Notes under the pieces: generated by a model | Databases searched by the model: none | Seen by the model: the letters and a program-made list of their open reading frames with translations, nothing else | What the model was told of the DNA's origin: nothing | From: an uncultured Candidatus Saccharibacteria bacterium | Lineage (GTDB): Bacteria > Patescibacteriota > Minisyncoccia > Phycocordibacterales > DATDWN01 | Direction: 5' to 3' | Length of the DNA: 49,366 nucleotides | Assembly: GCA_964468795.1 (NCBI GenBank) | Contig: CAYXWL010000001.1 | Location: 96,221-145,586 of the forward strand | Made by a program: the position numbers and the translations under genes | Part shown: piece by piece, positions 3,999 to 46,818 of the stretch | How the letters are laid out: each line of letters opens with the position of its first letter | Position numbering within the stretch: position 1 is the stretch's first letter

Positions 3999-4023
3999 TG
4001 TGTGTCGGCGCTGTGCCGGTGTA

Positions 4024-4671
4024 CTACAGGAGTCCGCGGATCGAATCCGCCTCCTCCTTGCGCTTGCTGAGGAGCCTCTGACGCTGCGTCTGAGCAGCGG
4101 CGATGTTGAGCTCGGTCGCGCGATCGTCGCGGTTCTTCTTCGCGAGTCGCTTCGTTTCTTCCTCCCGAACCATGCGCACACGGTCGCGCTTGCGCTGTTC
4201 TGCATCGGCCTCGACGAGCACCTTACTCATCGAGTTGTACGCCATGATGCGCTGATCGAAGGTGCCGTTCGTCTCGACCCTGACGGCCTCCTCGAGTTCC
4301 TTTCGGAACTTCTCGAGGCGGGCGAGAAGATCGGCGTCGAAGCCATCTTCGCGCCGGAGACGAATCTCACGAACGAAGAAAGCCTCCTTGGCGACGGTTG
4401 GATCCTGTCCTTCTGCCACCTCCGCCATCTGGCTGACGACGGAGTTGCGCAGGAACTTTCCCAGGATTGAGCGGCCGACGGAGAAGATCTCCCCGGCCTT
4501 CGCGATGGCGTCGTCCTGCTGACCCAGTTCGATATGGCCAGCCATGGCTTCCACCATCCCCTTGATCGGTTCGCCAACCTTGAATCCCGTCACCGACTTC
4601 ATCGTGGTGATGAGAGTCTTCACACGGTCGGTCGACTGCTCGAGGGTCATGCCGTTGGGAATCTTCTTCAT
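4024..4671 (-). CDS. GC-rich hypothetical protein (unit A), charged and probably coiled-coil C-terminal half
   Basis: ATG (MKKIPNGMTLEQ) is preceded by GGAGG at 5-nt spacing. 37/60 G+C in 4021-4080, strong G/C third-position bias. C-terminal part is E/R/K/A-rich. No family recognised. Confidence 0.6.
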   Translation of the reverse strand: MKKIPNGMTLEQSTDRVKTLITTMKSVTGFKVGEPIKGMVEAMAGHIELGQQDDAIAKAGEIFSVGRSILGKFLRNSVVSQMAEVAEGQDPTVAKEAFFVREIRLRREDGFDADLLARLEKFRKELEEAVRVETNGTFDQRIMAYNSMSKVLVEADAEQRKRDRVRMVREEETKRLAKKNRDDRATELNIAAAQTQRQRLLSKRKEEADSIRGLL

Positions 4672-4775
4672 CTCAACCTCCAAAGTTTTCCTCAAAGAGC
4701 GAAATTGCTCTCCAGGAAAATAGGCTTATAAATAAGCTAAGCTCATTTTCCTGTGAACAAATCTTTATAGTTAAA

Positions 4776-18327: not shown

Positions 18328-18408
18328 TAGAAATGCGGCCCTCCTACAACCCGCAATACCGTTCCCACCCCCAAAGAGCCACCCTAAAAAAGTGGCTCTT
18401 TTCTATTT
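18328..18408 (+). ncRNA. candidate C-rich small RNA (about 80 nt)
   Basis: Hairpin tgcgg-CCCTCCTACAAC-ccgca, single-stranded TTCCCACCCCC, then terminator aagagccac-cctaaaaaa-gtggctctt-ttctattt. The T-tract is on the plus strand only. Confidence 0.4.
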
Positions 18409-18798
18409 ATTTAAATAAGTAATTGAGAGCTGTAATACAGTAGCAAAAGTGACCCAGCCAAGGTATGGAATATTTACAAAACTTACCCACCTTGCATGAG
18501 GATATATAGAGTATAGTGCCCAAACAAGAGTAACGAGAACAAGCAAGATATCTGCAGCAGCTAAATAATTATTTTTTAAGCCGAATTGAATCGGAGTAAA
18601 GGCAAAATTGAATGCAAGATTTAGAATAAAAGGAAGCAACACTGCAAACGGAATTTTCTTATTTATATACAAATAGCCGACATACCCGAACGAAACAAAT
18701 ATAATACTGTACAAAAAAGTCCAGACGGGACCAAATAGATAACTTGGCGGAGCCCATGAAGGCTTTATCAAAGTTTTATACCATTCAGATTCTCTCAT
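18403..18798 (-). CDS. tspO: TspO/MBR family tryptophan-rich sensory protein
   Basis: WYKTLIKPSWAPPSYLFGPVWTFLY signature and 5 TM segments. Start moved to MRESEWY because TATAAT (reverse complement of 18806-18811) lies 7 nt upstream, so it looks leaderless. Confidence 0.85.
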   Translation of the reverse strand: MRESEWYKTLIKPSWAPPSYLFGPVWTFLYSIIFVSFGYVGYLYINKKIPFAVLLPFILNLAFNFAFTPIQFGLKNNYLAAADILLVLVTLVWALYSIYPHARWVSFVNIPYLGWVTFATVLQLSITYLNK

Positions 18799-18824
18799 GC
18801 CACCCATTATACCATACGAGAATG

Positions 18825-18847
18825 CCGGACCTCTAGCGAGATCCGGC
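18825..18847 (-). terminator. hairpin after GC-rich membrane-protein gene
   Basis: gccgga-N11-tccggc, directly downstream of the 18854 stop and upstream of the tspO -10 element. Confidence 0.35.
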
Positions 18848-18853
18848 ATCTAT

Positions 18854-19639
18854 TCACCACCCAAAGAGCTCTCCAAAGTAATCGCTCACTCTACTCCTCC
18901 AAACAGAGAAGCATCGCTTGGCAACTGTAACTGTCAGCATTGTGACAAAAGAGACAGTCGCCCACATGAGCCACCCGTAGACGTACTCCATCTTGTTTTT
19001 CGAAGTGGTCATGAGGAGCATCAGCCCCACAAAGCCCAAAACTCCGACAAAAAGCGAAACGAACACCGAAGTCATGCCTGCGATCAGCAAAACGATAGTG
19101 TTGTGCTTGAGGCGACTTGCAAAATTTTCTGACCAGCTTTCCGCTCTCTTCGAGAGAAGAAAGCCAGGAGCTATTCCAAGGATGGCCACCAAAAGTCCAA
19201 ATGCCATAAAGCCCCGTGCCACATTTACCGCAATGCCTTGAATTGGAAACTTCTCTGGCATGTAAATGTCGGCCTGTGAAAAATCGCCAATCCACCCTTC
19301 CTCATGTTTTTGGATCGAAATGTCCCACAAACGAATACCGAACCCAGAGAGATACACCATGGAAATGGTGATGCAAAGAACCATCACGCTGTTCTCCGGC
19401 ACACCGCCAAAAAGATCGGTACGAAATGCGAGAATGACTGAAGACGCCATGGAAATCATGAACAGGACAAAGCCTGTCGAAGCCAGGATCTTCAGAGCGA
19501 TACGATTTTTATGGGCAGACACGATATGGCTGGCGAGCTTGTTTACCCATGTCCGATCATCTCCGGACAAGCTCAATATCGACATGAACATAATGAACAC
19601 CCACATGACCTGAGTAACGAAAACTGAATCAAAATTCAT
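18854..19639 (-). CDS. GC-rich hypothetical polytopic membrane protein (unit B1)
   Basis: About 6 hydrophobic helices. GGAGG lies 8 nt before the ATG. About 50% GC. No family recognised. Confidence 0.6.
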   Translation of the reverse strand: MNFDSVFVTQVMWVFIMFMSILSLSGDDRTWVNKLASHIVSAHKNRIALKILASTGFVLFMISMASSVILAFRTDLFGGVPENSVMVLCITISMVYLSGFGIRLWDISIQKHEEGWIGDFSQADIYMPEKFPIQGIAVNVARGFMAFGLLVAILGIAPGFLLSKRAESWSENFASRLKHNTIVLLIAGMTSVFVSLFVGVLGFVGLMLLMTTSKNKMEYVYGWLMWATVSFVTMLTVTVAKRCFSVWRSRVSDYFGELFGW

Positions 19640-19706
19640 GCTCTTACCCTCCTTTAAAAAGCATACTTATCTTCTTGTCAGTGGTCAAACCAAAATTTTG
19701 TCGAAA

Positions 19707-19734
19707 GCCCCCTAGCAGACATCTGCTAGGGGGC
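19707..19734 (-). terminator. intrinsic terminator after unit P1
   Basis: gccccctagcag-acat-ctgctagggggc: 12-bp perfect stem. Confidence 0.6.
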
Positions 19735-19749
19735 TTACCAAAAAAACAT

Positions 19750-20142
19750 CTAGAGCCGATTGAACACGGGATCTTCAAGGTCTGGAGCCGAACCATCATC
19801 ACTTGCACCGAAAGGTCTTGCAGAGTTAGCCTCTGGCTTCTCTGACTTCGCTACGCTTATCTCCCAAAAATAGAAATTCCGTGGGAGCGGATATCCGCTA
19901 AAGACAACCTGAACAAAGCGATGATCTTGACTTTCAGGCACTCTCAGCTTTGAAATTACTCCTTCTGTGAAGGGTGGAATGCCTGACTGAAAGCACATGT
20001 CGCTAGTTTTCACTTTCTGACCAAGCTCGAAAGTGAGGATTTTCTCTTCGCCCAAAATCTGAACAATGACCTTAATCTCGTCAATCTGGACCTGGCCATT
20101 GCTTTTGACCGAAAAACTGCAGGTGCCGACTCGAAGTGACAT
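19750..20142 (-). CDS. GC-rich hypothetical small protein with acidic C-terminal tail (unit P1; paralog of 21254-21637)
   Basis: GGAGGG SD. TEGVISKLRVPESQDHRFVQVVFSGYP aligns with SEGIIVGLRDPTLSPRHYKFLEVFFLGAP of P2. Confidence 0.6.
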   Translation of the reverse strand: MSLRVGTCSFSVKSNGQVQIDEIKVIVQILGEEKILTFELGQKVKTSDMCFQSGIPPFTEGVISKLRVPESQDHRFVQVVFSGYPLPRNFYFWEISVAKSEKPEANSARPFGASDDGSAPDLEDPVFNRL

Positions 20143-20187
20143 ACTCCCTCCGCTAATATTTATATACCTTTAAAAACCATTTTTCAA

Positions 20188-21195
20188 TCAGTTTATTTCG
20201 AATTTACAGCCATCATGATCCAAGTTTCTTAGAAATTTATTGCAGAACTCTTCCCTCTCCTGGCCTGTCATAAAATCTGGAGCAAATATTTTAATATTAA
20301 ACGGATATATCTCCACAGAAATTTTATTTTTTTCAAAAACAACTCCCGCTCCCAAGCCTTTTGTCGTATCTCCAAAGTTCTGATCGAAAACAAAATTTCC
20401 CAATGAATAAAATATCGGCTTGCCTTTGTATATTTTTACAGGCTCGATAACATGAGGGTGGTGTCCGAATATCGCATCTGCTCCGCTATCTATTAGGGCC
20501 TGAGCAATGGCTGTCTGGCTATCATTTTCTGTGAGCATGTATTCGGTGCCCCAATGTATGTTTACAATGACAAAATCATTTTTTGATTTAAGTTCTTTTA
20601 TCGTTTGGTAATATCCAGATACCGGAATAGGAGCAACAGTTTCATCAATTCCTATGAAAGCAACTTTCTTGCCATTTATATTTTTTTCAACATAGCTTTT
20701 TTCCTGCGGTCTTTGGCCAATATAATCGATACCAGCCTTTGAAAGTTCTGATATGGTGCTTTCATAACCCTTAGCATAACAGTCATAAGAATGGTTATTG
20801 GCAATATTTACCATTGTAATGCCTGCCTCTCTTATCCTATTTGTAGTATCTGAAGCAAACTGAAAATTATATGCTTTGGTTTGGCACAAGGACCTATCCA
20901 TCGTAACTATCGGGCCCTCCAGATTTGCAACGACTACATCATAATCATGAAAAAATGAATTTGATTTTTTTATGTGTTCAAACGGATCTCTGTTGCGATT
21001 TTCAATTATATTTCTCACTCCACGATCAAACATAATGTCGCCGAAATTTAGTACAGAAAAATCCTCCTTACCGAATATTTTATCCAGCTTTTGTGACAAA
21101 GGGATATTTTGATCTCCCTCTTCTGTTTTTTTTGTATAGAATAAAACAGGAATGAGAAACACTACTATTAACGCCACAGCATACTTTCTTTTCAT
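20188..21195 (-). CDS. capA: CapA/PgsA-family metallophosphatase-fold protein (PGA_cap domain) with signal anchor
   Basis: FGDIMFDRGVR, ANLEGP, ANNHSYD, GHHPHV, LGNFVFDQ motifs. Start at MKRKYAV because TATAAT (reverse complement of 21202-21207) lies 6 nt upstream. AT-rich. Confidence 0.8.
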   Translation of the reverse strand: MKRKYAVALIVVFLIPVLFYTKKTEEGDQNIPLSQKLDKIFGKEDFSVLNFGDIMFDRGVRNIIENRNRDPFEHIKKSNSFFHDYDVVVANLEGPIVTMDRSLCQTKAYNFQFASDTTNRIREAGITMVNIANNHSYDCYAKGYESTISELSKAGIDYIGQRPQEKSYVEKNINGKKVAFIGIDETVAPIPVSGYYQTIKELKSKNDFVIVNIHWGTEYMLTENDSQTAIAQALIDSGADAIFGHHPHVIEPVKIYKGKPIFYSLGNFVFDQNFGDTTKGLGAGVVFEKNKISVEIYPFNIKIFAPDFMTGQEREEFCNKFLRNLDHDGCKFEIN

Positions 21196-21220
21196 GTCAC
21201 TATTATACTCCAAATAGAAA

Positions 21221-21249
21221 ACAGCTCCGCACACCTAGTGCGGAGCTGT
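21221..21249 (-). terminator. intrinsic terminator after unit P2
   Basis: acagctccgcac-accta-gtgcggagctgt: 12-bp perfect stem. The ORF-track N-terminal extension of capA is a translation of this hairpin. Confidence 0.6.
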
Positions 21250-21253
21250 GCTC

Positions 21254-21637
21254 CTAGTGAACTATTGGCGAGGGCCATTCTTCATCCGAATCTACTTCAT
21301 CATCTTTATCGCCAGAAATGTTCGTTTCGTAAGAACTACCTATCACCTCCTCGATACCGATCCAAACGGTAAACGGAGCGCCTAGGAAAAAGACCTCGAG
21401 AAACTTGTAATGGCGAGGTGAAAGTGTCGGATCCCGAAGACCGACAATTATACCTTCACTGCCGCAAGTTATCACAAAACCTTTTACGCGAAGGTTTTTG
21501 CTAGCCACTACAATCTCGTCTTTATAGTATACCCAAGGTTCAGGTCGACCATCAGGATTAAAAGTCACCCCGACCACCTCACGCTCTCGACCCACACCCA
21601 TAGCGTCGATGGACCAGGTTATAGCAGAGTGATCCAT
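21254..21637 (-). CDS. GC-rich hypothetical small protein with acidic C-terminal tail (unit P2; paralog of 19750-20142)
   Basis: GGAGG SD and tail DKDDEVDSDEEWP. See the P1 alignment. Confidence 0.6.
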   Translation of the reverse strand: MDHSAITWSIDAMGVGREREVVGVTFNPDGRPEPWVYYKDEIVVASKNLRVKGFVITCGSEGIIVGLRDPTLSPRHYKFLEVFFLGAPFTVWIGIEEVIGSSYETNISGDKDDEVDSDEEWPSPIVH

Positions 21638-21694
21638 AAAGGGCTCCTCCTGCCTATATTAAATCTTTTTTAAAAATATATTGCAAACACAAAA

Positions 21695-21722
21695 GGGCCG
21701 TCTGCGCGAGTGCAGACGGCCC
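21695..21722 (-). terminator. intrinsic terminator after the M50-like gene
   Basis: gggccgtctgc-gcgagt-gcagacggccc: 11-bp stem, followed on the minus strand by TTGCAA-17-TTTAAT, a candidate P2 promoter. Confidence 0.6.
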
Positions 21723-21731
21723 TGTGATTCA

Positions 21732-22478
21732 TCAGCTTGCGTGTGGATAGGCTTCTCTCCTCGAACGAATTTCGTTCTCTTTCGGATTCAAAGCTATCAC
21801 TGACAAGAGCAGTTCCCAGCCGTCAAAAAACGGAATGGGCAAAAGGTTCATTGCAAAAAGTCCAAGCGATGAATACATCACGACGTTCAGGAAGTCCGGA
21901 ACCATCCTAATGCGCATCGCCATCCATTTTGCTATGTACGGAATGTCCATCATGACGACTGACTGGAAGAAGTTTCCTCTCAGCGAGTCATCGAGAACAA
22001 AGAGACCTGCTGCAAACCACAGGATTGGGCTTATGAAACCCAAAACAAGTCGCAATCTGAAGCAGACGATGAGAGCAACGAGGATGGACACCGTGGCATA
22101 GCCAGCAAACGAGTAAGCCCTTTGAGGAGCCATCGTAGCTGCCATGCCAAAGAGCCATGCGATCTGGCTTACAGAGAGGCTCGCCCACATTCCGCTCGAG
22201 TAGACAGAGGCTTCATCAATGTAGCCCATGCCTGGCACAGAGAGTAGATCTACTTTGCGTACATCGAGGGAAACCCAGATTGGAAAAAGGCAGAAACGGA
22301 TTTCTGTCCTCCCGAAAAACGGAGGGAAAGAAAGCGAAATGCCAGGACCGATTCCCACCCGTATTGCATCCACCAGAACTCCACATGAAAGCAATGCTCT
22401 GGCTTTTGCCACTTGGTAGACCAATGCGGAAAAAATCACTCCGCACAAGATCATTAGGACTTTCAAGACAAAGATCAT
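21732..22478 (-). CDS. M50/site-2-protease (RseP-like) homolog lacking the HExxH zinc site
   Basis: NLLPIPFFDGWELL matches the M50 NxxPxxxLDG motif. Where HExxH is expected (before ...CGV-V....IG-G) the sequence is YQVAK. Start at MIFVLKV with GGAGGGG SD. Confidence 0.6.
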   Translation of the reverse strand: MIFVLKVLMILCGVIFSALVYQVAKARALLSCGVLVDAIRVGIGPGISLSFPPFFGRTEIRFCLFPIWVSLDVRKVDLLSVPGMGYIDEASVYSSGMWASLSVSQIAWLFGMAATMAPQRAYSFAGYATVSILVALIVCFRLRLVLGFISPILWFAAGLFVLDDSLRGNFFQSVVMMDIPYIAKWMAMRIRMVPDFLNVVMYSSLGLFAMNLLPIPFFDGWELLLSVIALNPKENEIRSRREAYPHAS

Positions 22479-22533: not shown

Positions 22534-24198
22534 TTAGTCAAGAAACAGCCTCGCCAGCCGAATTTTAAGGTAAGTTGGCTTCTTTTTTTTCTTTGCTAGG
22601 AGATTGTAAACTGGAGAAAGGGTCGTTGTTCCACACTCAGCAAATGCCTTGAGTATGTCTTCAAATTCGCTTCTCTTTAATTCGCGCTTAAGATATGAAA
22701 TGTCCGGACATCTTCCCTCAAGGACCAGGTCCTCGATATGGGAAATTATGGTTTCTTCTTTCACCCCTCTTTCTTTTGCAATCTTTGACAGAGGCATTTC
22801 CTGCTCGAGCATTTCGGTAGTTATTTCGTGAGTAGATTTCTTTAGCTCTTTCTCTTTCTTTTTTATCTTTACTTTTTCCTCCGGCTCTATAGATTTTATC
22901 CACTCTTTTTGAATATCAGCCAATTCATGTTTGGAAAGATTTTTCAAATCCATTACCGCATCCTCTGACTGTTCTCTGAATTTCTCATCCATTTCCAAAA
23001 CTTCATTATCAACCAATAGTGACATGTCATTGAACCCAAGAAGCTTGATACCATCAAGACTCCTGACTCTCGAAAGGGCAACGTAGCCCATGCCTCTTAC
23101 GAAAGATTTTGAGAGATCTACTTCCATGGCATCGAGAGACATGCCTTGGCTTTTGTGAACGGTAATAGCCCACGCCAATCGGAGCGGGATTTGGGATATT
23201 TCGGCCTTGACCTTGCCTTCCTCCTCTACTTTCCAAGACTGAGAAGAAACTGTTACCTCCATACCGCTGTTTGTTAGAACCACAGGATCTCCGAAAGAAT
23301 TGAAATCTTTTATAACTCCGAGAGTTCCGTTTACATAAAGTCCATCGGCATGATTTTTTGTAAACATCACTCTAGCTCCGACTTTTAACAGCAAAGCCTC
23401 TGGTGAAAGACAACTTTTTTTTAGAGTCTCTACTAGCCCTTGAGAGCCTTTGCTTGTCATGCTGAAAAGCTTTGATTTTCCTTCGATTAGATCAAGATGT
23501 CTGTTATTTACAGTATCGACATCTATGTTATGTGTGTACAGCCTTGTGTATTCAGAACCAGCTTCAGGATCTTTCCCGAATCGGGACTTTAGCATTTCGA
23601 TAGTATTTTTTGTCACTCGATTCTCCCTTATTTCATTTAGTATGGCCAGATACGCATTGTCCTTTTGCCGATGCTGTTCTGTAAGGTAGCATATTGTAAA
23701 TTTTGAAGCTGGCCAGCTGTCAGCTTTGTAGGCAAATTCTGATTCAACAACTTCTCCACGAGTTACCGGTGGAAGCTGAAAAAAATCTCCACATAAAATA
23801 ATCTGCATGCCTCCAAACGGCTTTTCGCTTCGCTTCATCTGCCTGCAAATCCACTCGATAAGATCCAACCTGAAATGATGAAGCATTGAGATTTCATCTA
23901 TTATCAAAACTTTAGTCCTGTCGAAGCGTTTGTACAAATATTGTCGCTCCATTAGATCCTCAATGTCATAGTCAGTGAGGATGTCGCGCACGCCAAGTCC
24001 AGACCATGCATGTATTGTCATTCCTCCAATATGAGTTGCAGCAATTCCTGTCGAGGCGGTAACTGCAACATCTACTCCGTGCGATTTTAAATACGAAACA
24101 TACGCATTAAGAACATGTGTCTTTCCGCTTCCTGCTGGGCCTGTTAAAAAAACATTGCGACCCATTTTTAAAATATCCAATGCTTCTGCCTGCAACAT
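22534..24198 (-). CDS. PIF1/RecD-like superfamily-1 helicase with C-terminal HTH-like domain
   Basis: GPAGSGKTH, VLIIDEISML, ILCGDFFQLPPV, TVHKSQGMSLD, GYVALSRV motifs. Confidence 0.85.
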   Translation of the reverse strand: MLQAEALDILKMGRNVFLTGPAGSGKTHVLNAYVSYLKSHGVDVAVTASTGIAATHIGGMTIHAWSGLGVRDILTDYDIEDLMERQYLYKRFDRTKVLIIDEISMLHHFRLDLIEWICRQMKRSEKPFGGMQIILCGDFFQLPPVTRGEVVESEFAYKADSWPASKFTICYLTEQHRQKDNAYLAILNEIRENRVTKNTIEMLKSRFGKDPEAGSEYTRLYTHNIDVDTVNNRHLDLIEGKSKLFSMTSKGSQGLVETLKKSCLSPEALLLKVGARVMFTKNHADGLYVNGTLGVIKDFNSFGDPVVLTNSGMEVTVSSQSWKVEEEGKVKAEISQIPLRLAWAITVHKSQGMSLDAMEVDLSKSFVRGMGYVALSRVRSLDGIKLLGFNDMSLLVDNEVLEMDEKFREQSEDAVMDLKNLSKHELADIQKEWIKSIEPEEKVKIKKKEKELKKSTHEITTEMLEQEMPLSKIAKERGVKEETIISHIEDLVLEGRCPDISYLKRELKRSEFEDILKAFAECGTTTLSPVYNLLAKKKKKPTYLKIRLARLFLD

Positions 24199-24314: not shown

Positions 24315-24680
24315 ATGAACATCTCAAAAGAAAGGCTTGCAGAGCTGAGCCATATGAACGAGCACGACCTGCTCCATGAGGCTCACACGCAAGGGCTCGA
24401 GTTTACCCAGTGTCTGGTGAAGGAAGTTACTCGGCAATTCACAGAAGTGGATTTGTCAGGCATCGACTTCAGCAAGTGCACAACAATCGATTCGGCAATC
24501 ATGATCGTGCCGAAGGAATTCAAGCTCAGGGAAAACTTCCTGCGCCGTTGTGTCATCGCCTGGGAATCAAACGAAAATGCCCAGGCGCAGGGAGCAGAAA
24601 GCCGCTTCAAGACACCGGAACACATTCGTTCCGGATCAGCAGTCGGGATTGCCATCCTGACACAGATTCTTTCCGCCTAG
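24315..24680 (+). CDS. GC-rich hypothetical protein (unit E), hydrophobic C-terminal tail
   Basis: GGAGG lies 9 nt before the ATG. C-terminus is SGSAVGIAILTQILSA. No family recognised. Confidence 0.55.
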   Translation: MNISKERLAELSHMNEHDLLHEAHTQGLEFTQCLVKEVTRQFTEVDLSGIDFSKCTTIDSAIMIVPKEFKLRENFLRRCVIAWESNENAQAQGAESRFKTPEHIRSGSAVGIAILTQILSA

Positions 24681-24760: not shown

Positions 24761-24929
24761 TAACAAAAAGTAACTCATAGTTTTTTAGAACATCCGGAGG
24801 GCTTGAGCATGGTTTTGTCAACGTCCCGAGCAAAGCGAGGGTTCATTGAGAAATCAAGCCCGAGGACCGAGAAAAATTTCCCGCTGGGAAATTTTTCGTT
24901 TCTAAAAAACTATGAGTTACTTTTTGTTA
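24761..24929. repeat. structured inverted-repeat element R2 with 30-bp perfect terminal inverted repeats
   Basis: 24761-24790 is the exact reverse complement of 24900-24929. Inner helices are gggcttga/tcaagccc and gaaaaatttccc-gct-gggaaatttttc. The right arm contains the last 3 codons and the stop of trmD. Confidence 0.75.
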
Positions 24930-25693: not shown

Positions 25694-26074
25694 CTAGTCA
25701 GCTGAGCGACTCATGTAGTTGTACTTCTTGTCGAGAATCTTTTTCATCCTCGGCTCTGCGCTGCAGAGAGCAACCGAGTCTTCAAAAGACAGACCCTCAA
25801 AAACTGGGTTCTGCTTTTTCGGTTGTTCAAGCGGATTGCCGAAAGGAATCCTCTCAAGTGGCATGCCTTGCGGAATGCCATAGAGACTCATTGTGCTCGC
25901 CTCAAGCTTTTTCTCTGCCTCGAGGCAGTATTCGTGAAGCTCTTCGGCTGTACTTGAAAGAATAACCCTGTCCCAAACGATCTCCCTCGAGATCTCCCTC
26001 GAGATCTCCTTGGGTGACGGAGTGAACATAAGGAGCGTGGCAAGAATTACCGTTCTAAGCGAGAAATTTATCAA
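25694..26074 (-). CDS. GC-rich hypothetical secreted protein (unit F)
   Basis: TTG start with GGAGGG SD. Signal-like VILATLLMFTPSP. EISREISREI is encoded by a 12-bp tandem repeat. Confidence 0.5.
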   Translation of the reverse strand: MINFSLRTVILATLLMFTPSPKEISREISREIVWDRVILSSTAEELHEYCLEAEKKLEASTMSLYGIPQGMPLERIPFGNPLEQPKKQNPVFEGLSFEDSVALCSAEPRMKKILDKKYNYMSRSAD

Positions 26075-31586: not shown

Positions 31587-31609
31587 GGGCATCGCGAAAT
31601 GCGATGCCC
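31587..31609 (-). terminator. intrinsic terminator after the ParB-like operon
   Basis: gggcatcgc-gaaat-gcgatgccc: 9-bp stem. Confidence 0.6.
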
Positions 31610-31655
31610 GGTTTATTTACCTCCTATAAATGAACTATGGTGCCGAAAGAAAATC

Positions 31656-32519
31656 CTACGAAGCCTTCGCGACCTTCTCGGACTTCTTCGAGGGAAGCTC
31701 GATCCCAGCCTTCGCCGCGAAACGCGCACGCCAGTCGGCGAGCACACGTCCGGACCGGTCAGCCAGGCGCTGGAGGTGATTGAAGATATCGTTCACTTCA
31801 CCCGCCTTCAGATCGCCGTCCTCGAACTTTTCGATGAGGTTGCGGCAGAACGCCGCGTTGCGCTGGCCGATCGACTTGTACTGCGACGTCAGCTTCCGCT
31901 GAGTGTCGGCGAGGCTATTGCCCCGCTTCTTCCGAGTGCCAGAGAGAAACTCCTTGAGCTTCTCGGGAGGCACGTCGAACTGCTGAGCCGCCTTGGCAAC
32001 CGTGAGGTTACCGTCGGTGACGGCCGCCCCAGCCTTGACGATCTTGGCCCGATCAAGTCGCGACTTCACACTGCCGGCGTACTTGCGAGCGATGTTGCCC
32101 GGAAGACCGAGCAACTCGCCGATTGCACGCATGCTGACACCCCTTTCGAGGAGCAGTGCGATCGTGTGCTCGGTATCTGCGATCGACGGTGGCATGGATC
32201 CGCCGGTGTTGGCGCGGAACCCTGCGGCGATGAGGTCGGTCTCGGAGTCGACCTTGTAGATCTCGACTTCGATCTCGAGCACATCGGCGAGTTCGTAAGC
32301 CTCCTTGCGGTGGCGACCGTCGATGATGAGGTGTTCCTCGGTGAGCTTGACCTTCTCACGCATCTTGACCCCGCCGATGATGAGATCGGCCAGGTACAGC
32401 GCGTGATCGTGATTGAGCTCCTGCCGGACGAAGGTGTTAACCTTGATGTCCTTCACCTTCACGGTTTCGGTGCGAATGAACTTCATCTCTCGTCTCCCGT
32501 CTCTTGTCTTACGTCTCAT
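31656..32519 (-). CDS. GC-rich ParB/Srx-fold (ParB N-terminal domain) protein with HTH-like middle region (unit D4)
   Basis: HLIIDGRHRKEAYE is the ParB-like DGxHR motif. VSMRAIGELLGLPGNIARKY is HTH-like. The ATG overlaps the upstream stop as TAATG. Alternative start MKFIRTE at 32486 has a GGGAGA SD. Confidence 0.7.
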   Translation of the reverse strand: MRRKTRDGRREMKFIRTETVKVKDIKVNTFVRQELNHDHALYLADLIIGGVKMREKVKLTEEHLIIDGRHRKEAYELADVLEIEVEIYKVDSETDLIAAGFRANTGGSMPPSIADTEHTIALLLERGVSMRAIGELLGLPGNIARKYAGSVKSRLDRAKIVKAGAAVTDGNLTVAKAAQQFDVPPEKLKEFLSGTRKKRGNSLADTQRKLTSQYKSIGQRNAAFCRNLIEKFEDGDLKAGEVNDIFNHLQRLADRSGRVLADWRARFAAKAGIELPSKKSEKVAKAS

Positions 32520-32755
32520 TACTGATCAGACGGTCTGTAGAACCGCCCACTGTAAGCGCGCCATCCGGAGCGCTTCTTGCGAATGTCCGAAAGGATGACT
32601 ACGTCACCTTCTTCCGGCTGCCTCTTCTCCTGCCAAACTTCCGGCTTGAGAGAGAATGTAACCGAGCCAAGCTCCTCCGAAGAGGCTTTGGCATAGGGGC
32701 CGTGCACGCCCTCAGCGAATGTCTTCTGGACGATTGCTGAAAAGCTTTCACCCAT
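32519..32755 (-). CDS. GC-rich hypothetical 78-aa protein (unit D3)
   Basis: Its start follows the upstream stop within GTGTAAGATG, suggesting translational coupling. No family recognised. Confidence 0.55.
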   Translation of the reverse strand: MGESFSAIVQKTFAEGVHGPYAKASSEELGSVTFSLKPEVWQEKRQPEEGDVVILSDIRKKRSGWRAYSGRFYRPSDQ

Positions 32756-32756
32756 C

Positions 32757-33539
32757 TTACACCTTCTTGCCCGTGATGAGTCTCATGTTGAGTACGCTCA
32801 TGTGAGCGGACAACTTCGTGATGCACATCTGGGCAGCTGAGTCGAGTTCCTGCATCTCCTTCTCGTTCAGGGATTCAAGAACCCCCTCGTCGAGAAGTAG
32901 TACAAGTCCTTCCATAATCTGAAGAGTCGCCCTGCGACGCACTGCAATCTGAGACTGACTCTCAGGCATGCGAATGACCTTCGCGACGGATTGCTCTTCG
33001 ACCTGGATTTGACCTGGAAATTCGATCACAAACTTTCTCTGAGCATCTTTCTTCTTCTGCTCGAGAAGTTCACGACGTGACTTCCAGTATGACCACATCT
33101 TCTCTTCCCGGTCTTGGCTTACCCCCCGATCTCCACGCATTGCTGCGTAGATTTCAGAGGTATGAGCGAAACCGATCTCAGATGCAACATTGTCCGGGCT
33201 TTCGATCCCGTAGCCGATGATCTCGGCCAGGTTTCGAAACGTGGCACTGAGTCTTTCGAACTCAATGATCCGATACCCCTGGAGATCCAGGAAGCAGTAC
33301 AGCTTGAGTCGCGACAGACCAACGATGTTGGTCTTCCGACTCGGGTTCGGAGTGAGCCAGACGCCGACGGTGGCCGTATCAACGTCACAGAATTCCACAA
33401 TAGGCATCGCCGCGGATTTGAGCCGGTGACGCGCCATAGGAGGAAATGCGACATTGAAAGCCCTGATGAAGTGCTCGAAGCACTCATCAAAGTGATCCCT
33501 GAGGACCTCGGGCCTACCATCTCTCTGATTTACTTGCAC
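32757..33539 (-). CDS. GC-rich hypothetical 260-aa protein with two HTH-like stretches (unit D2)
   Basis: GTG start with GGAAGG SD. VDTATVGVWLTPNPSRK and SPDNVASEIGFAHTSEIYAAMRGDRGVS resemble XRE-type HTH. Helical C-terminal region. Confidence 0.55.
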   Translation of the reverse strand: MQVNQRDGRPEVLRDHFDECFEHFIRAFNVAFPPMARHRLKSAAMPIVEFCDVDTATVGVWLTPNPSRKTNIVGLSRLKLYCFLDLQGYRIIEFERLSATFRNLAEIIGYGIESPDNVASEIGFAHTSEIYAAMRGDRGVSQDREEKMWSYWKSRRELLEQKKKDAQRKFVIEFPGQIQVEEQSVAKVIRMPESQSQIAVRRRATLQIMEGLVLLLDEGVLESLNEKEMQELDSAAQMCITKLSAHMSVLNMRLITGKKV

Positions 33540-34754: not shown

Positions 34755-34954
34755 CTACAGTATTTTTAGAAACGATAAATTCTCCAGCAGAGAATTTATC
34801 TCTCTCCTTACAGGAGCAGTACACCTTTCGCAAAGTTTTGCTCAAGGTCTTGCGAAGCAATAATATTGCTTCTCACCTCGGCTTCTATTCGTCAAGGCAT
34901 GGTACCTTGACGAAACCATGCTAGAAGCCTGCGTATTTTCTAAAAATACAGTAG
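34755..34954. repeat. structured inverted-repeat element R3 (inverted homolog of 46599-46818)
   Basis: Terminal inverted repeats match 17/18 (34755-34772 vs 34937-34954). Hairpin gataaattctc-cagca-gagaatttatc. The 55-nt block 34804-34858 matches the reverse complement of 46701-46755 with 2 mismatches. Confidence 0.75.
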
Positions 34955-45742: not shown

Positions 45743-46138
45743 ATGGCCAGCATGATTAAGTTTGTCCTTGCAGTTTTGTTCGTGATGTCAGTGATCGTGT
45801 TCGGCCTCAACTCGGCCACTCACACCGAACGCAACACGACTGGATTCACCCAGACAACCAAGATCTCGAATGACCATGTACCGTTCGACCGCTACTGTGG
45901 CTACTTGCTCTCAGTCGGCCACGGCTCAATCACGTTCGAAGATAGAGAACCAATCGAGATCGTGCATTTGACCTTTAGGGGTCGAACTGCCGACTCGACA
46001 ATCACAAGGATTCTCTACGGAGACGAAGGTCGTCTTCGCAAGATCCGAGCTGGCCAGTTCTACGACATCGGCGCTCGGCGGTACAACGACAACTGGTCGT
46101 TTCCACGACGCCTCGACGTGGTGAGTGGTTGCAACTAG
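45743..46138 (+). CDS. GC-rich hypothetical secreted or membrane-anchored protein (unit J)
   Basis: AAGGAG SD. Signal anchor IKFVLAVLFVMSVIVFGL. No family recognised. Confidence 0.55.
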   Translation: MASMIKFVLAVLFVMSVIVFGLNSATHTERNTTGFTQTTKISNDHVPFDRYCGYLLSVGHGSITFEDREPIEIVHLTFRGRTADSTITRILYGDEGRLRKIRAGQFYDIGARRYNDNWSFPRRLDVVSGCN

Positions 46139-46598: not shown

Positions 46599-46818
46599 AA
46601 AACTTCGTTGAACCATAATTTTCGAAAGACTCCGCAAGCCTTGAGCTGGTTTGGTCAAGGTATCCTGCCTTAACGAATCAAGATCGAGGTGAGAAGCGCA
46701 GCTTCGCAAGACCTTGAGCAAAGCTTTGCGAAAGGTGTACAGCTCCTGTAAGGAGGAAGTGAGCGTAGCGCTGGCGGAGCGAATGGTCTGGAGAAAATTT
46801 TGGTGAAAAAGAAGTTTT
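46599..46818. repeat. structured repeat element R4 (inverted homolog of 34755-34954; 5' module shared with 24761-24929)
   Basis: 46701-46755 matches the reverse complement of 34804-34858 at 53/55. cgaggtgagaagc is identical in both. Short outer pairing aaaacttc/gaagtttt. Confidence 0.7.

Follow-up and report, generated by a model that had tools for sequence, protein, structure and literature searches.

A CapA-like gene (capA) on the minus strand of a 49,366-nucleotide stretch of contig CAYXWL010000001.1 (hereafter the window, meaning the whole stretch analysed) is bracketed by two small genes, P1 and P2, each of which adjoins a membrane protein gene, B1 and the M50-like gene M50L respectively. 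The backbone genes of the window and their relatives point to a Zambryskibacteria-type Patescibacterium of the Candidate Phyla Radiation (CPR) as the source lineage. On the reading that is judged probable on balance, the four flanking genes are separately transcribed and fill variable slots beside capA, which is itself part of the backbone; P1 and P2 would be ancient SH3-like paralogs, M50L a probable pseudoprotease and B1 an orphan. The five genes, whose order in the first-pass annotation of this DNA was confirmed on the list of open reading frames (ORFs), are as follows.

21732 to 22478, minus strand: M50L, 248 amino acids (aa), ATG start with a Shine-Dalgarno (SD) sequence; the alternative start is TTG, at 22541
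21254 to 21637, minus strand: P2, 127 aa
20188 to 21195, minus strand: capA-like gene of the PGA_cap family, with an N-terminal membrane anchor
19750 to 20142, minus strand: P1, 130 aa
18854 to 19639, minus strand: B1, 261 aa, with six hydropathy peaks (predicted transmembrane segments)

Relationship between P1 and P2

The first-pass annotation had counted 13 identities in 30 positions of a core shared by P1 and P2; the similarity holds, with a lower count of 11 identities in 29 columns. The BLASTP comparison of the two proteins (E = 0.1) is borderline alone, and Smith-Waterman alignment gave p = 0.0035 with z of about 4 against 2000 shuffles, the aligned positions being equivalent in both proteins. 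Related sequences were drawn from 31 syntenic loci of Zambryskibacteria-type Patescibacteria, which were fetched via the neighbouring Pif1-like helicase. A P2 homolog lies directly upstream of capA in locus L036 (2488-2883; 35% identity, E = 1e-19) and a second one, P0020, is found in L041, while a distinct small family is located directly downstream of capA in L022, L026, L027 and L036. The comparison of these groups with hhalign, with three unrelated GC-rich families of the same loci as controls, gave the following values.

P2 family and downstream-of-capA family: E = 9e-5 over 74 columns
P1 and downstream-of-capA family: E = 7.5e-4 over 63 columns
P1 and P2 family: E = 6.6e-3 over 62 columns
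Controls (families c7, c177 and X25694): E > 0.07 over few columns

A leave-one-out family hidden Markov model (HMM) recovered P1 at E = 1.8e-5, ranked first of the non-training sequences among 4205 ORFs (the next, unrelated, at 0.28), and likewise recovered P2 at E = 3e-6. When P1 and the whole P2 subfamily were left out of the model, P1 and P2 were recovered from the same ORFs at 9e-5 and 1.6e-4, with noise from about 0.2. The similarity, borderline in the pairwise comparison, is significant under these profile statistics. As the leave-out HMMs recover both proteins and the hhalign profiles link the subfamilies, P1 and P2 are, on sequence grounds, distant and ancient paralogs. P1 is the positional counterpart of the subfamily found downstream of capA in the relatives.

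Other GC-rich genes were considered as further paralogs and rejected. Two small ORFs of the window, X24315 and X25694, have no similarity to P1 or P2, and the same holds by hhalign for the families c7, c177 and X25694 of the relatives.

The capA locus and its variable slots

The capA gene matches the Pfam family PGA_cap (PF09587) at 201.9 bits (E = 1.6e-59), above threshold. There is no pgsB- or pgsC-like neighbour among the window ORFs, either on the ORF list or in the Pfam scan, and hence a role of capA in poly-gamma-glutamate synthesis is not implied. The backbone order in the relatives is TrmD, helicase, slot, capA, slot, s62, LexA, and the window capA shares 54-67% identity with the capA genes that occupy its place in at least 20 of them. 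The locus may be described as a local backbone of TrmD, the Pif1-like helicase, capA, s62 and LexA, in which the slots on each side of capA vary between species. In L021, for example, the helicase, capA, s62 and LexA follow one another and both slots are empty.

The SH3-like family to which P1 and P2 belong directly flanks capA in 4 of 34 distinct close capA loci, namely the window, L036 (both sides), L022 and L027 (downstream). Three short contigs (L041, L044 and L045) add further members adjacent to capA, and a family member adjoins capA in 7 of the 11 loci that carry the family. The slots of the remaining capA loci are filled by backbone genes or by other GC-rich small genes. The bracketing of capA by paralogs is not accidental, as L036 repeats the order P2-type gene, capA, P1-type gene. 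The percentage identities between loci are given below.

L045 and L027: capA 84%, family 86%
L022 and L027: capA 79%, family 63%
L036 and L041: capA 70%, family 53%
Window and others: capA 57-63%, family 29-35%

The identity of the family rises with that of capA, which argues for vertical descent at a fixed position, with members that diverge quickly and are often lost, and not for repeated insertion. Judged by synteny and identity, the bracket is ancestral to a subclade, vertically inherited and often lost, and the family is evolving 2-3 times faster than capA.

Some of the GC-rich cassettes in the slots of relatives can be annotated, and those encode small regulators. These include an ECF-type sigma factor, DksA/TraR zinc-finger proteins and a response-regulator receiver domain (L022:11788-12339, L018:4459-4866, L049:453-845, L042:447-992 and L040:1820-2182), and one DksA/TraR zinc-finger gene is located directly upstream of the family member P0024. 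There are at least two further slot families, both uncharacterised and without a Pfam match; one has seven members of about 130 aa (L014:6728-7126 and six others) and the other four members of about 177 aa (L014:7580-8113 and three others).

The same strain is represented in other samples by contigs that match the window at 99.9-100% identity, and the seven differences observed over about 40 kb give no power for an estimate of dN/dS. A 1-nt deletion at 20359 in capA of L004 results in a 308-aa variant. L131 and L132 carry single-nucleotide polymorphisms at 21865, 21910 and 21996 in M50L, two of them non-synonymous (I190S and L205P), and the adjacent 1.7-kb helicase has none; these numbers are too small to interpret.

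Distribution and predicted fold of the P1/P2 family

Direct searches with P1 and P2, at word-index sensitivity, matched each protein only to itself among 5.8e9 clusters, and the family profile finds six clusters in that set. An exhaustive search of 1.84e9 representative proteins with the family profile gave 12 matches, about nine of which are true members of 100-150 aa; the large repeat proteins P0022, P0025 and P0026 among the matches were judged spurious. Neither metagenome contigs nor 2.9 million viral contigs yielded a relative when scanned with the P2 subfamily, P1 and P2 had no match in Pfam, NCBIfam, PADLOC or PHROGs, and nothing on the family was found in the literature on Zambryskibacteria. 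All member contigs with recognisable neighbours carry a Zambryskibacteria-type backbone, as seen from capA, the helicase, a GDSL lipase or a protein of about 1100 aa. The family is previously undescribed, very narrow and restricted to one lineage, and its kin are of familiar kinds, namely the small SH3-like barrel and the lineage-specific accessory gene.

The AlphaFold2 model of P2 has an overall pLDDT (predicted local distance difference test) of 76. Residues 1-100 are modelled as all-beta with ten strands at pLDDT 80-93, and the tail is below 55. The top Foldseek matches of this model in the Protein Data Bank (PDB) are SH3 domains, with target-normalised TM-scores of 0.65-0.73, a root-mean-square deviation of about 2.5 Å over about 64 columns and E values of 0.02-0.2. 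The P1 model is of low confidence (pLDDT 57) and has strands at positions matching those of P2; it retrieves SH3/Tudor-like folds, such as the Pif1 2B domain and tandem SH3/Tudor domains. One family member (L016:8893-9195) passes the Pfam model SH3_12 (PF18129, Xrn1 SH3-like) with 27.8 bits against 26.2, and P1 and P2 do not. The matches of the family profile to PDB sequences were set aside as repeat-protein artefacts (‘Bagel’ designs).

Both proteins are predicted to have an N-terminal beta extension of about 45 residues ahead of the barrel and a disordered tail after it (residues 103-127 in P2). The tails are proline-rich in all family members and acidic in most, with an invariant proline near the C-terminus, and they end in subfamily-specific tips (IVH, YGLV, (E/K)PF or GCS[CH]). 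The D/E-rich tails described at first pass are borne out for P1 and P2, whose last 30 residues have net charges of -4 and -8, respectively. Only these disordered tails carry the negative charge, as the net charge of the folded core is +1 in P1 and -3 in P2. An immunity-protein or DNA-mimic role, which the annotation had also offered, is disfavoured by this near-neutral core and by the lack of matches in PADLOC, PHROGs and NCBIfam. None of the family members has a signal peptide or a transmembrane segment.

The barrel modelled for P2 can be superposed on SH3 domains, at E values short of significance, and in this it may resemble the SH3-like barrels of eukaryotic SH3 domains, PF18129, KOW/Tudor domains and the 2B domain of SF1B helicases. 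However, no named SH3 family gives a significant match to P1 or P2 in sequence or fold, and the two are stand-alone proteins, not parts of larger ones, that have the N-terminal extension and a long disordered tail. Another likeness is to bacterial SSB, which combines an OB fold, a linker and a tip ending in DDDIPF. By analogy, the P1/P2 family has a small beta-barrel, a flexible acidic or proline-rich linker and a short conserved C-terminal tip, which in one subfamily ends in (E/K)PF. The likeness to SSB is one of analogy only, as the predicted barrel is SH3-like and not OB, there is no sequence similarity, and the tips vary by subfamily.

Expression signals and base composition

A strong SD of the GGAGG type precedes each of the four flanking genes, in agreement with the first-pass description; the sequences are AAGGAGGG for B1, GCGGAGGGAG for P1, GCAGGAGGAG for P2 and TTGGAGGGG for M50L. 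The annotation had also given each of these genes its own GC hairpin. This is so for M50L, P2 and P1, whose hairpins have stems of 12-14 bp as listed below, and the hairpin 3' of B1 is weaker, with an 8-bp stem.

21694 to 21723, minus strand: terminator-like hairpin 3' of M50L, 12-bp stem with 9 GC pairs and a T-run
21221 to 21249, minus strand: terminator-like hairpin 3' of P2, 12-bp stem with a T-run, directly upstream of the TATAAT and ATG of capA
19696 to 19745, minus strand: hairpin 3' of P1, 14-bp stem; the 24-nt arms are 88% complementary, with A- and T-tracts on two sides

Promoter-like sites were spotted by eye or by a consensus scan at the four flanking genes, B1 having one. The putative ‘leaderless-type’ promoter of capA is visible as TATAAT, 6 nt and ATG, and it lacks a good -35 element. 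Since every one of these genes comes with an SD and a hairpin and there is a strong terminator between M50L and P2, the pairs of membrane and small protein genes are not obvious operons, and an operon-like pairing is not supported. Going by these predicted signals, the four flanking genes are separate transcription units. No shared repeats, integron-like or other, flank the cassettes; the terminator hairpins are gene-specific and mutually unrelated.

The GC content of the four flanking genes is 47-49%, slightly under the value of about 50% first reported for them, and the AT-richness of capA (36%) stands; nearby backbone genes are at 35-41%. At third codon positions (GC3), the four genes range from 0.43 to 0.57 (0.55 in M50L and 0.57 in B1) against 0.31-0.40 in neighbouring backbone genes. 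The composition at four-fold degenerate sites is as follows.

Four GC-rich genes: A.22, C.26, G.23, T.29
Ordinary backbone genes: A.34, C.17, G.14, T.35
RpoB/C (taken as highly expressed): A.50, C.06, G.08, T.37

The silent sites of the four genes are thus near-uniform in composition (about 50% GC) and differ from those of the AT-biased host genes; therefore, the GC excess is neither an amino-acid effect nor a host translational bias. The GC3 excess recurs in the P1/P2-family members of every genome examined (L016-L046).

M50L and B1

M50L matches the Pfam family Peptidase_M50 (PF02163) at E = 1.4e-5 and 25.0 bits, under the cut-off of 27.2, over profile positions 77-195 of 221 in the C-terminal two thirds, and its residues 186-228 match the NCBIfam RseP model at E = 4e-4. 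The motif of the third zinc ligand, NxxPxxxxDG, is kept as NLLPIPFFDG (residues 211-220). There is no HExxH, and the single histidine is residue 246 of 248. In a weak local alignment (E = 0.063) with an approximate E. coli RseP sequence, Y21-Q-V-A-K25 falls at the HExxH position. Without HExxH, M50L cannot be a zinc protease by the canonical mechanism, and it is probably a degenerate, multi-pass homolog of site-2 proteases (S2P) that is non-catalytic and non-proteolytic. No canonical S2P is present in the related loci, and sequence comparison detects no match of M50L to an S2P of solved structure. It is like RseP and SpoIVFB in being multi-pass, in the C-terminal NxxPxxxxDG motif and in its similarity to the M50 and RseP profiles, and unlike them in lacking HExxH, in having one histidine only, in scoring below the Pfam cut-off and in having no PDZ domain detected by Pfam. 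The iRhoms are intramembrane pseudoproteases without catalytic residues (PMC3149277). M50L also lacks catalytic residues, and a pseudoprotease role is proposed for it by analogy with these proteins.

The recurrence of pairs of membrane and small proteins with homologs elsewhere holds for one pair and not for the other. In L041, an M50-like gene (26% identity to M50L, E = 0.003) is followed by a P2-type gene and then by capA (67% identity), and no other locus repeats a pair of membrane and small proteins; none of the P1-type relatives adjoins a B1-like gene. With a P2-type gene preceded by an M50-like gene in this one other species as well, gene order makes M50L and P2 a plausible membrane/soluble pair.

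B1 has no match in Pfam, NCBIfam, PADLOC or PHROGs, and jackhmmer over 117 related loci finds only B1 itself. It is also unrelated to M50L (shuffle p = 0.28). Unrelated genes follow the P1-type relatives, namely a paralog, one for a large protein (1061-1181 aa), one for a protein of 444 aa, or an ORF on the opposite strand. As far as these comparisons go, B1 is a strain-specific orphan membrane protein with no sign of a partnership with P1.

The next gene after B1 in minus-strand order is given here with the observations that concern it.

18403 to 18849, minus strand: TspO

TspO lies downstream of capA in the window, and in relatives it lies upstream (helicase, TspO, a 168-aa gene, capA). Its longest ORF extends about 15-18 codons further at the N-terminus than in relatives, so that an internal ATG is probably the true start. 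The hairpin of B1 falls inside this N-terminal extension.

Proposed roles and alternative explanations

P1 and P2 are likely protein-binding adaptors. As they have no signal peptide, they would be cytoplasmic, each with an SH3-like barrel of about 100 residues that includes the N-terminal beta extension, a disordered tail and a tip. The barrel may dock on a partner, while the flexible tail and tip would tether a second site or occupy it; the proteins would then act as binding adaptors or regulators and not as enzymes. M50L could serve as a membrane receptor or scaffold and may pair with P2.

Several points weigh against this picture. The adaptor role is drawn from architecture alone. The models suggest an SH3-like fold weakly, as none of the Foldseek matches of the P1 and P2 models, in the PDB or among viral structures, reaches significance (E <= 0.001) and the P1 model is of low confidence. 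The acidic tail is not universal, that of the ‘...PF’ subfamily being neutral or basic. As to M50L and P2, their adjacency is known from two species and could be plain inherited synteny; the M50-like frame in L041 is open to the contig end, so that its N-terminus runs off the contig; in L036 a P2-type gene is present and an M50-like gene is not; and the strong terminator lies between M50L and P2. Lastly, the persistently atypical GC3, which shows no amelioration, fits oddly with vertical descent.

The first-pass annotation had seen in the mirrored layout either a duplicated two-component module or one island split by capA. In the former, M50L with P2 and B1 with P1 would each be a membrane effector or sensor with its soluble partner. 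The paralogy of P1 and P2, their adjacency to membrane proteins in the window and the recurrence of the order M50-like, P2-type, capA in L041 agree with this. But the two membrane proteins are unrelated, and the absence of any B1 homolog from the related loci together with the unrelated downstream neighbours of P1-type relatives largely refutes the B1-P1 half; moreover, L036 has both small proteins with neither membrane protein, and each gene has its own terminator. A duplicated module is therefore distinctly unlikely. The splitting of a GC-rich island by an AT-rich capA insertion, which the GC contrast between capA (36%) and its neighbours (47-49%) brings to mind, is refuted by synteny and deserves next to no credence. 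The composition of capA is typical of the backbone and the odd composition belongs to the flanking genes; relatives with none of the four GC-rich genes keep capA at the same place after the helicase, and it is present whether or not GC-rich genes are, as in L021.

Another alternative ties P1 and P2 to the CapA-like enzyme, as its regulators, its chaperones or substrates with recognised C-terminal tips. Of the 11 loci, 7 have a family member next to capA, two species have one on each side of it, and this adjacency is kept while the sequences diverge to about 30% identity; the subfamily-conserved tips and the invariant proline would suit such a role, as would a partial match of capA to the NCBIfam MslH epimerase (E = 3.5e-18). 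The PGA_cap family includes MslH, which is reported to epimerise the C-terminal tryptophan of the precursor peptide MslA (PMC8179263, PMC10406935). However, the MslH match scores 65 bits against a family cut-off of 700, about 27 of the 34 close capA loci have no family member, and other members sit after the GDSL lipase or beside TrmD. The topologies are also mismatched, since capA is N-terminally anchored in the membrane and probably extracytoplasmic by prediction and P1 and P2 have no signal peptide, and inherited position alone can explain the adjacency. On these counts, a functional tie to CapA is unlikely.

A further proposal would make the four genes conflict cassettes, with a part in phage defence or anti-defence or as toxin-immunity or decoy proteins, comparable to prophage ‘morons,’ which are self-contained accessory units of foreign composition in hot spots. 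The four genes are, by analogy, likewise self-contained units of host-unlike composition between conserved genes. Each has its own SD and terminator, there are promoter-like sites, and their silent sites are alien to the host; the family evolves very fast, is sporadically distributed and occurs as tandem paralogs in L022 and L045. The slot neighbours in relatives also include the ECF sigma factor, DksA/TraR zinc fingers and receiver domain, and genes of these three kinds are common on mobile elements too. Unlike morons, however, the four genes have no prophage, integrase or repeat context and the family is apparently vertically inherited. P1, P2, B1 and M50L have no PADLOC match at E <= 1 and no PHROGs match, no relative was found in the 2.9 million viral contigs and no significant match among viral folds, there is no toxin, nuclease or integrase neighbour and there are no flanking repeats, and the family diverges in step with capA, a sign of vertical descent as opposed to repeated acquisition. 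Conflict cassettes are accordingly held to be quite improbable.

Other features of the window

A repeated element of about 115 nt occurs in the window at the following positions.

34804 to 34918, plus strand: copy of the element
46647 to 46755, minus strand: copy of the element, forming with the former an inverted pair 11.8 kb apart
24863 to 24908: partial copy

The arms of the inverted pair are 96% and 82% complementary, and the element folds into four hairpins with -40 kcal/mol and z = -4.5. It has no family match in Rfam, the best being RsaD with 22 bits and E = 0.055. It may represent either a structured RNA of small size or a miniature repeat element.

Further GC-rich islands (52-62% GC against about 41% for the genome) are found at 4000-4700, 31599-33539 and 45743-46138, and their ORFs have no Pfam match. 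ORFs overlap on both strands at 4000-4700, and the ORF at 31599-32525 has a homolog in a relative (L038:366-1331). The two GC-rich small ORFs that were rejected as paralogs of P1 and P2 flank the pair of helicase and TrmD.

24315 to 24680, plus strand: X24315, 121 aa, GC3 0.63, a pure orphan
25694 to 26074, minus strand: X25694, 126 aa; L022, L026 and L037 have homologs in the equivalent place, also upstream of TrmD, and there is a weak match to a transglycosylase of PHROGs (E = 0.022)

Implications

The current understanding is not overturned by the preferred reading, in which separately transcribed genes occupy variable slots beside a backbone capA. A more far-reaching proposal is that the order pseudo-site-2-protease, SH3-like tail protein, CapA-like protein, SH3-like tail protein is an ancestral and hitherto unknown envelope-linked signalling or modification module of the CPR, in which the membrane partners would bind or act on the conserved C-terminal tips of P1 and P2 as their ligands or substrates and the atypical composition would reflect a special evolutionary regime. 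This proposal is a very long shot. If it were true, P2 might for example be sequestered by the catalytically dead M50-like protein, or the tips might be modified by a CapA-like enzyme related to MslH.

Two species place the P1/P2 family beside an M50-like protein, and the copy in the window lacks the catalytic motif. The slots beside capA gather small genes whose silent sites are unlike those of the host despite apparent vertical descent, which is a puzzle for genome evolution. The genomes of CPR/Patescibacteria are small and hold much lineage-specific content without an assigned function. P1 and P2 offer a clean and testable case of such content, as their family is confined to one CPR lineage, appears to belong to a recognisable fold class and keeps its place beside an envelope gene while diverging 2-3 times faster than that gene.

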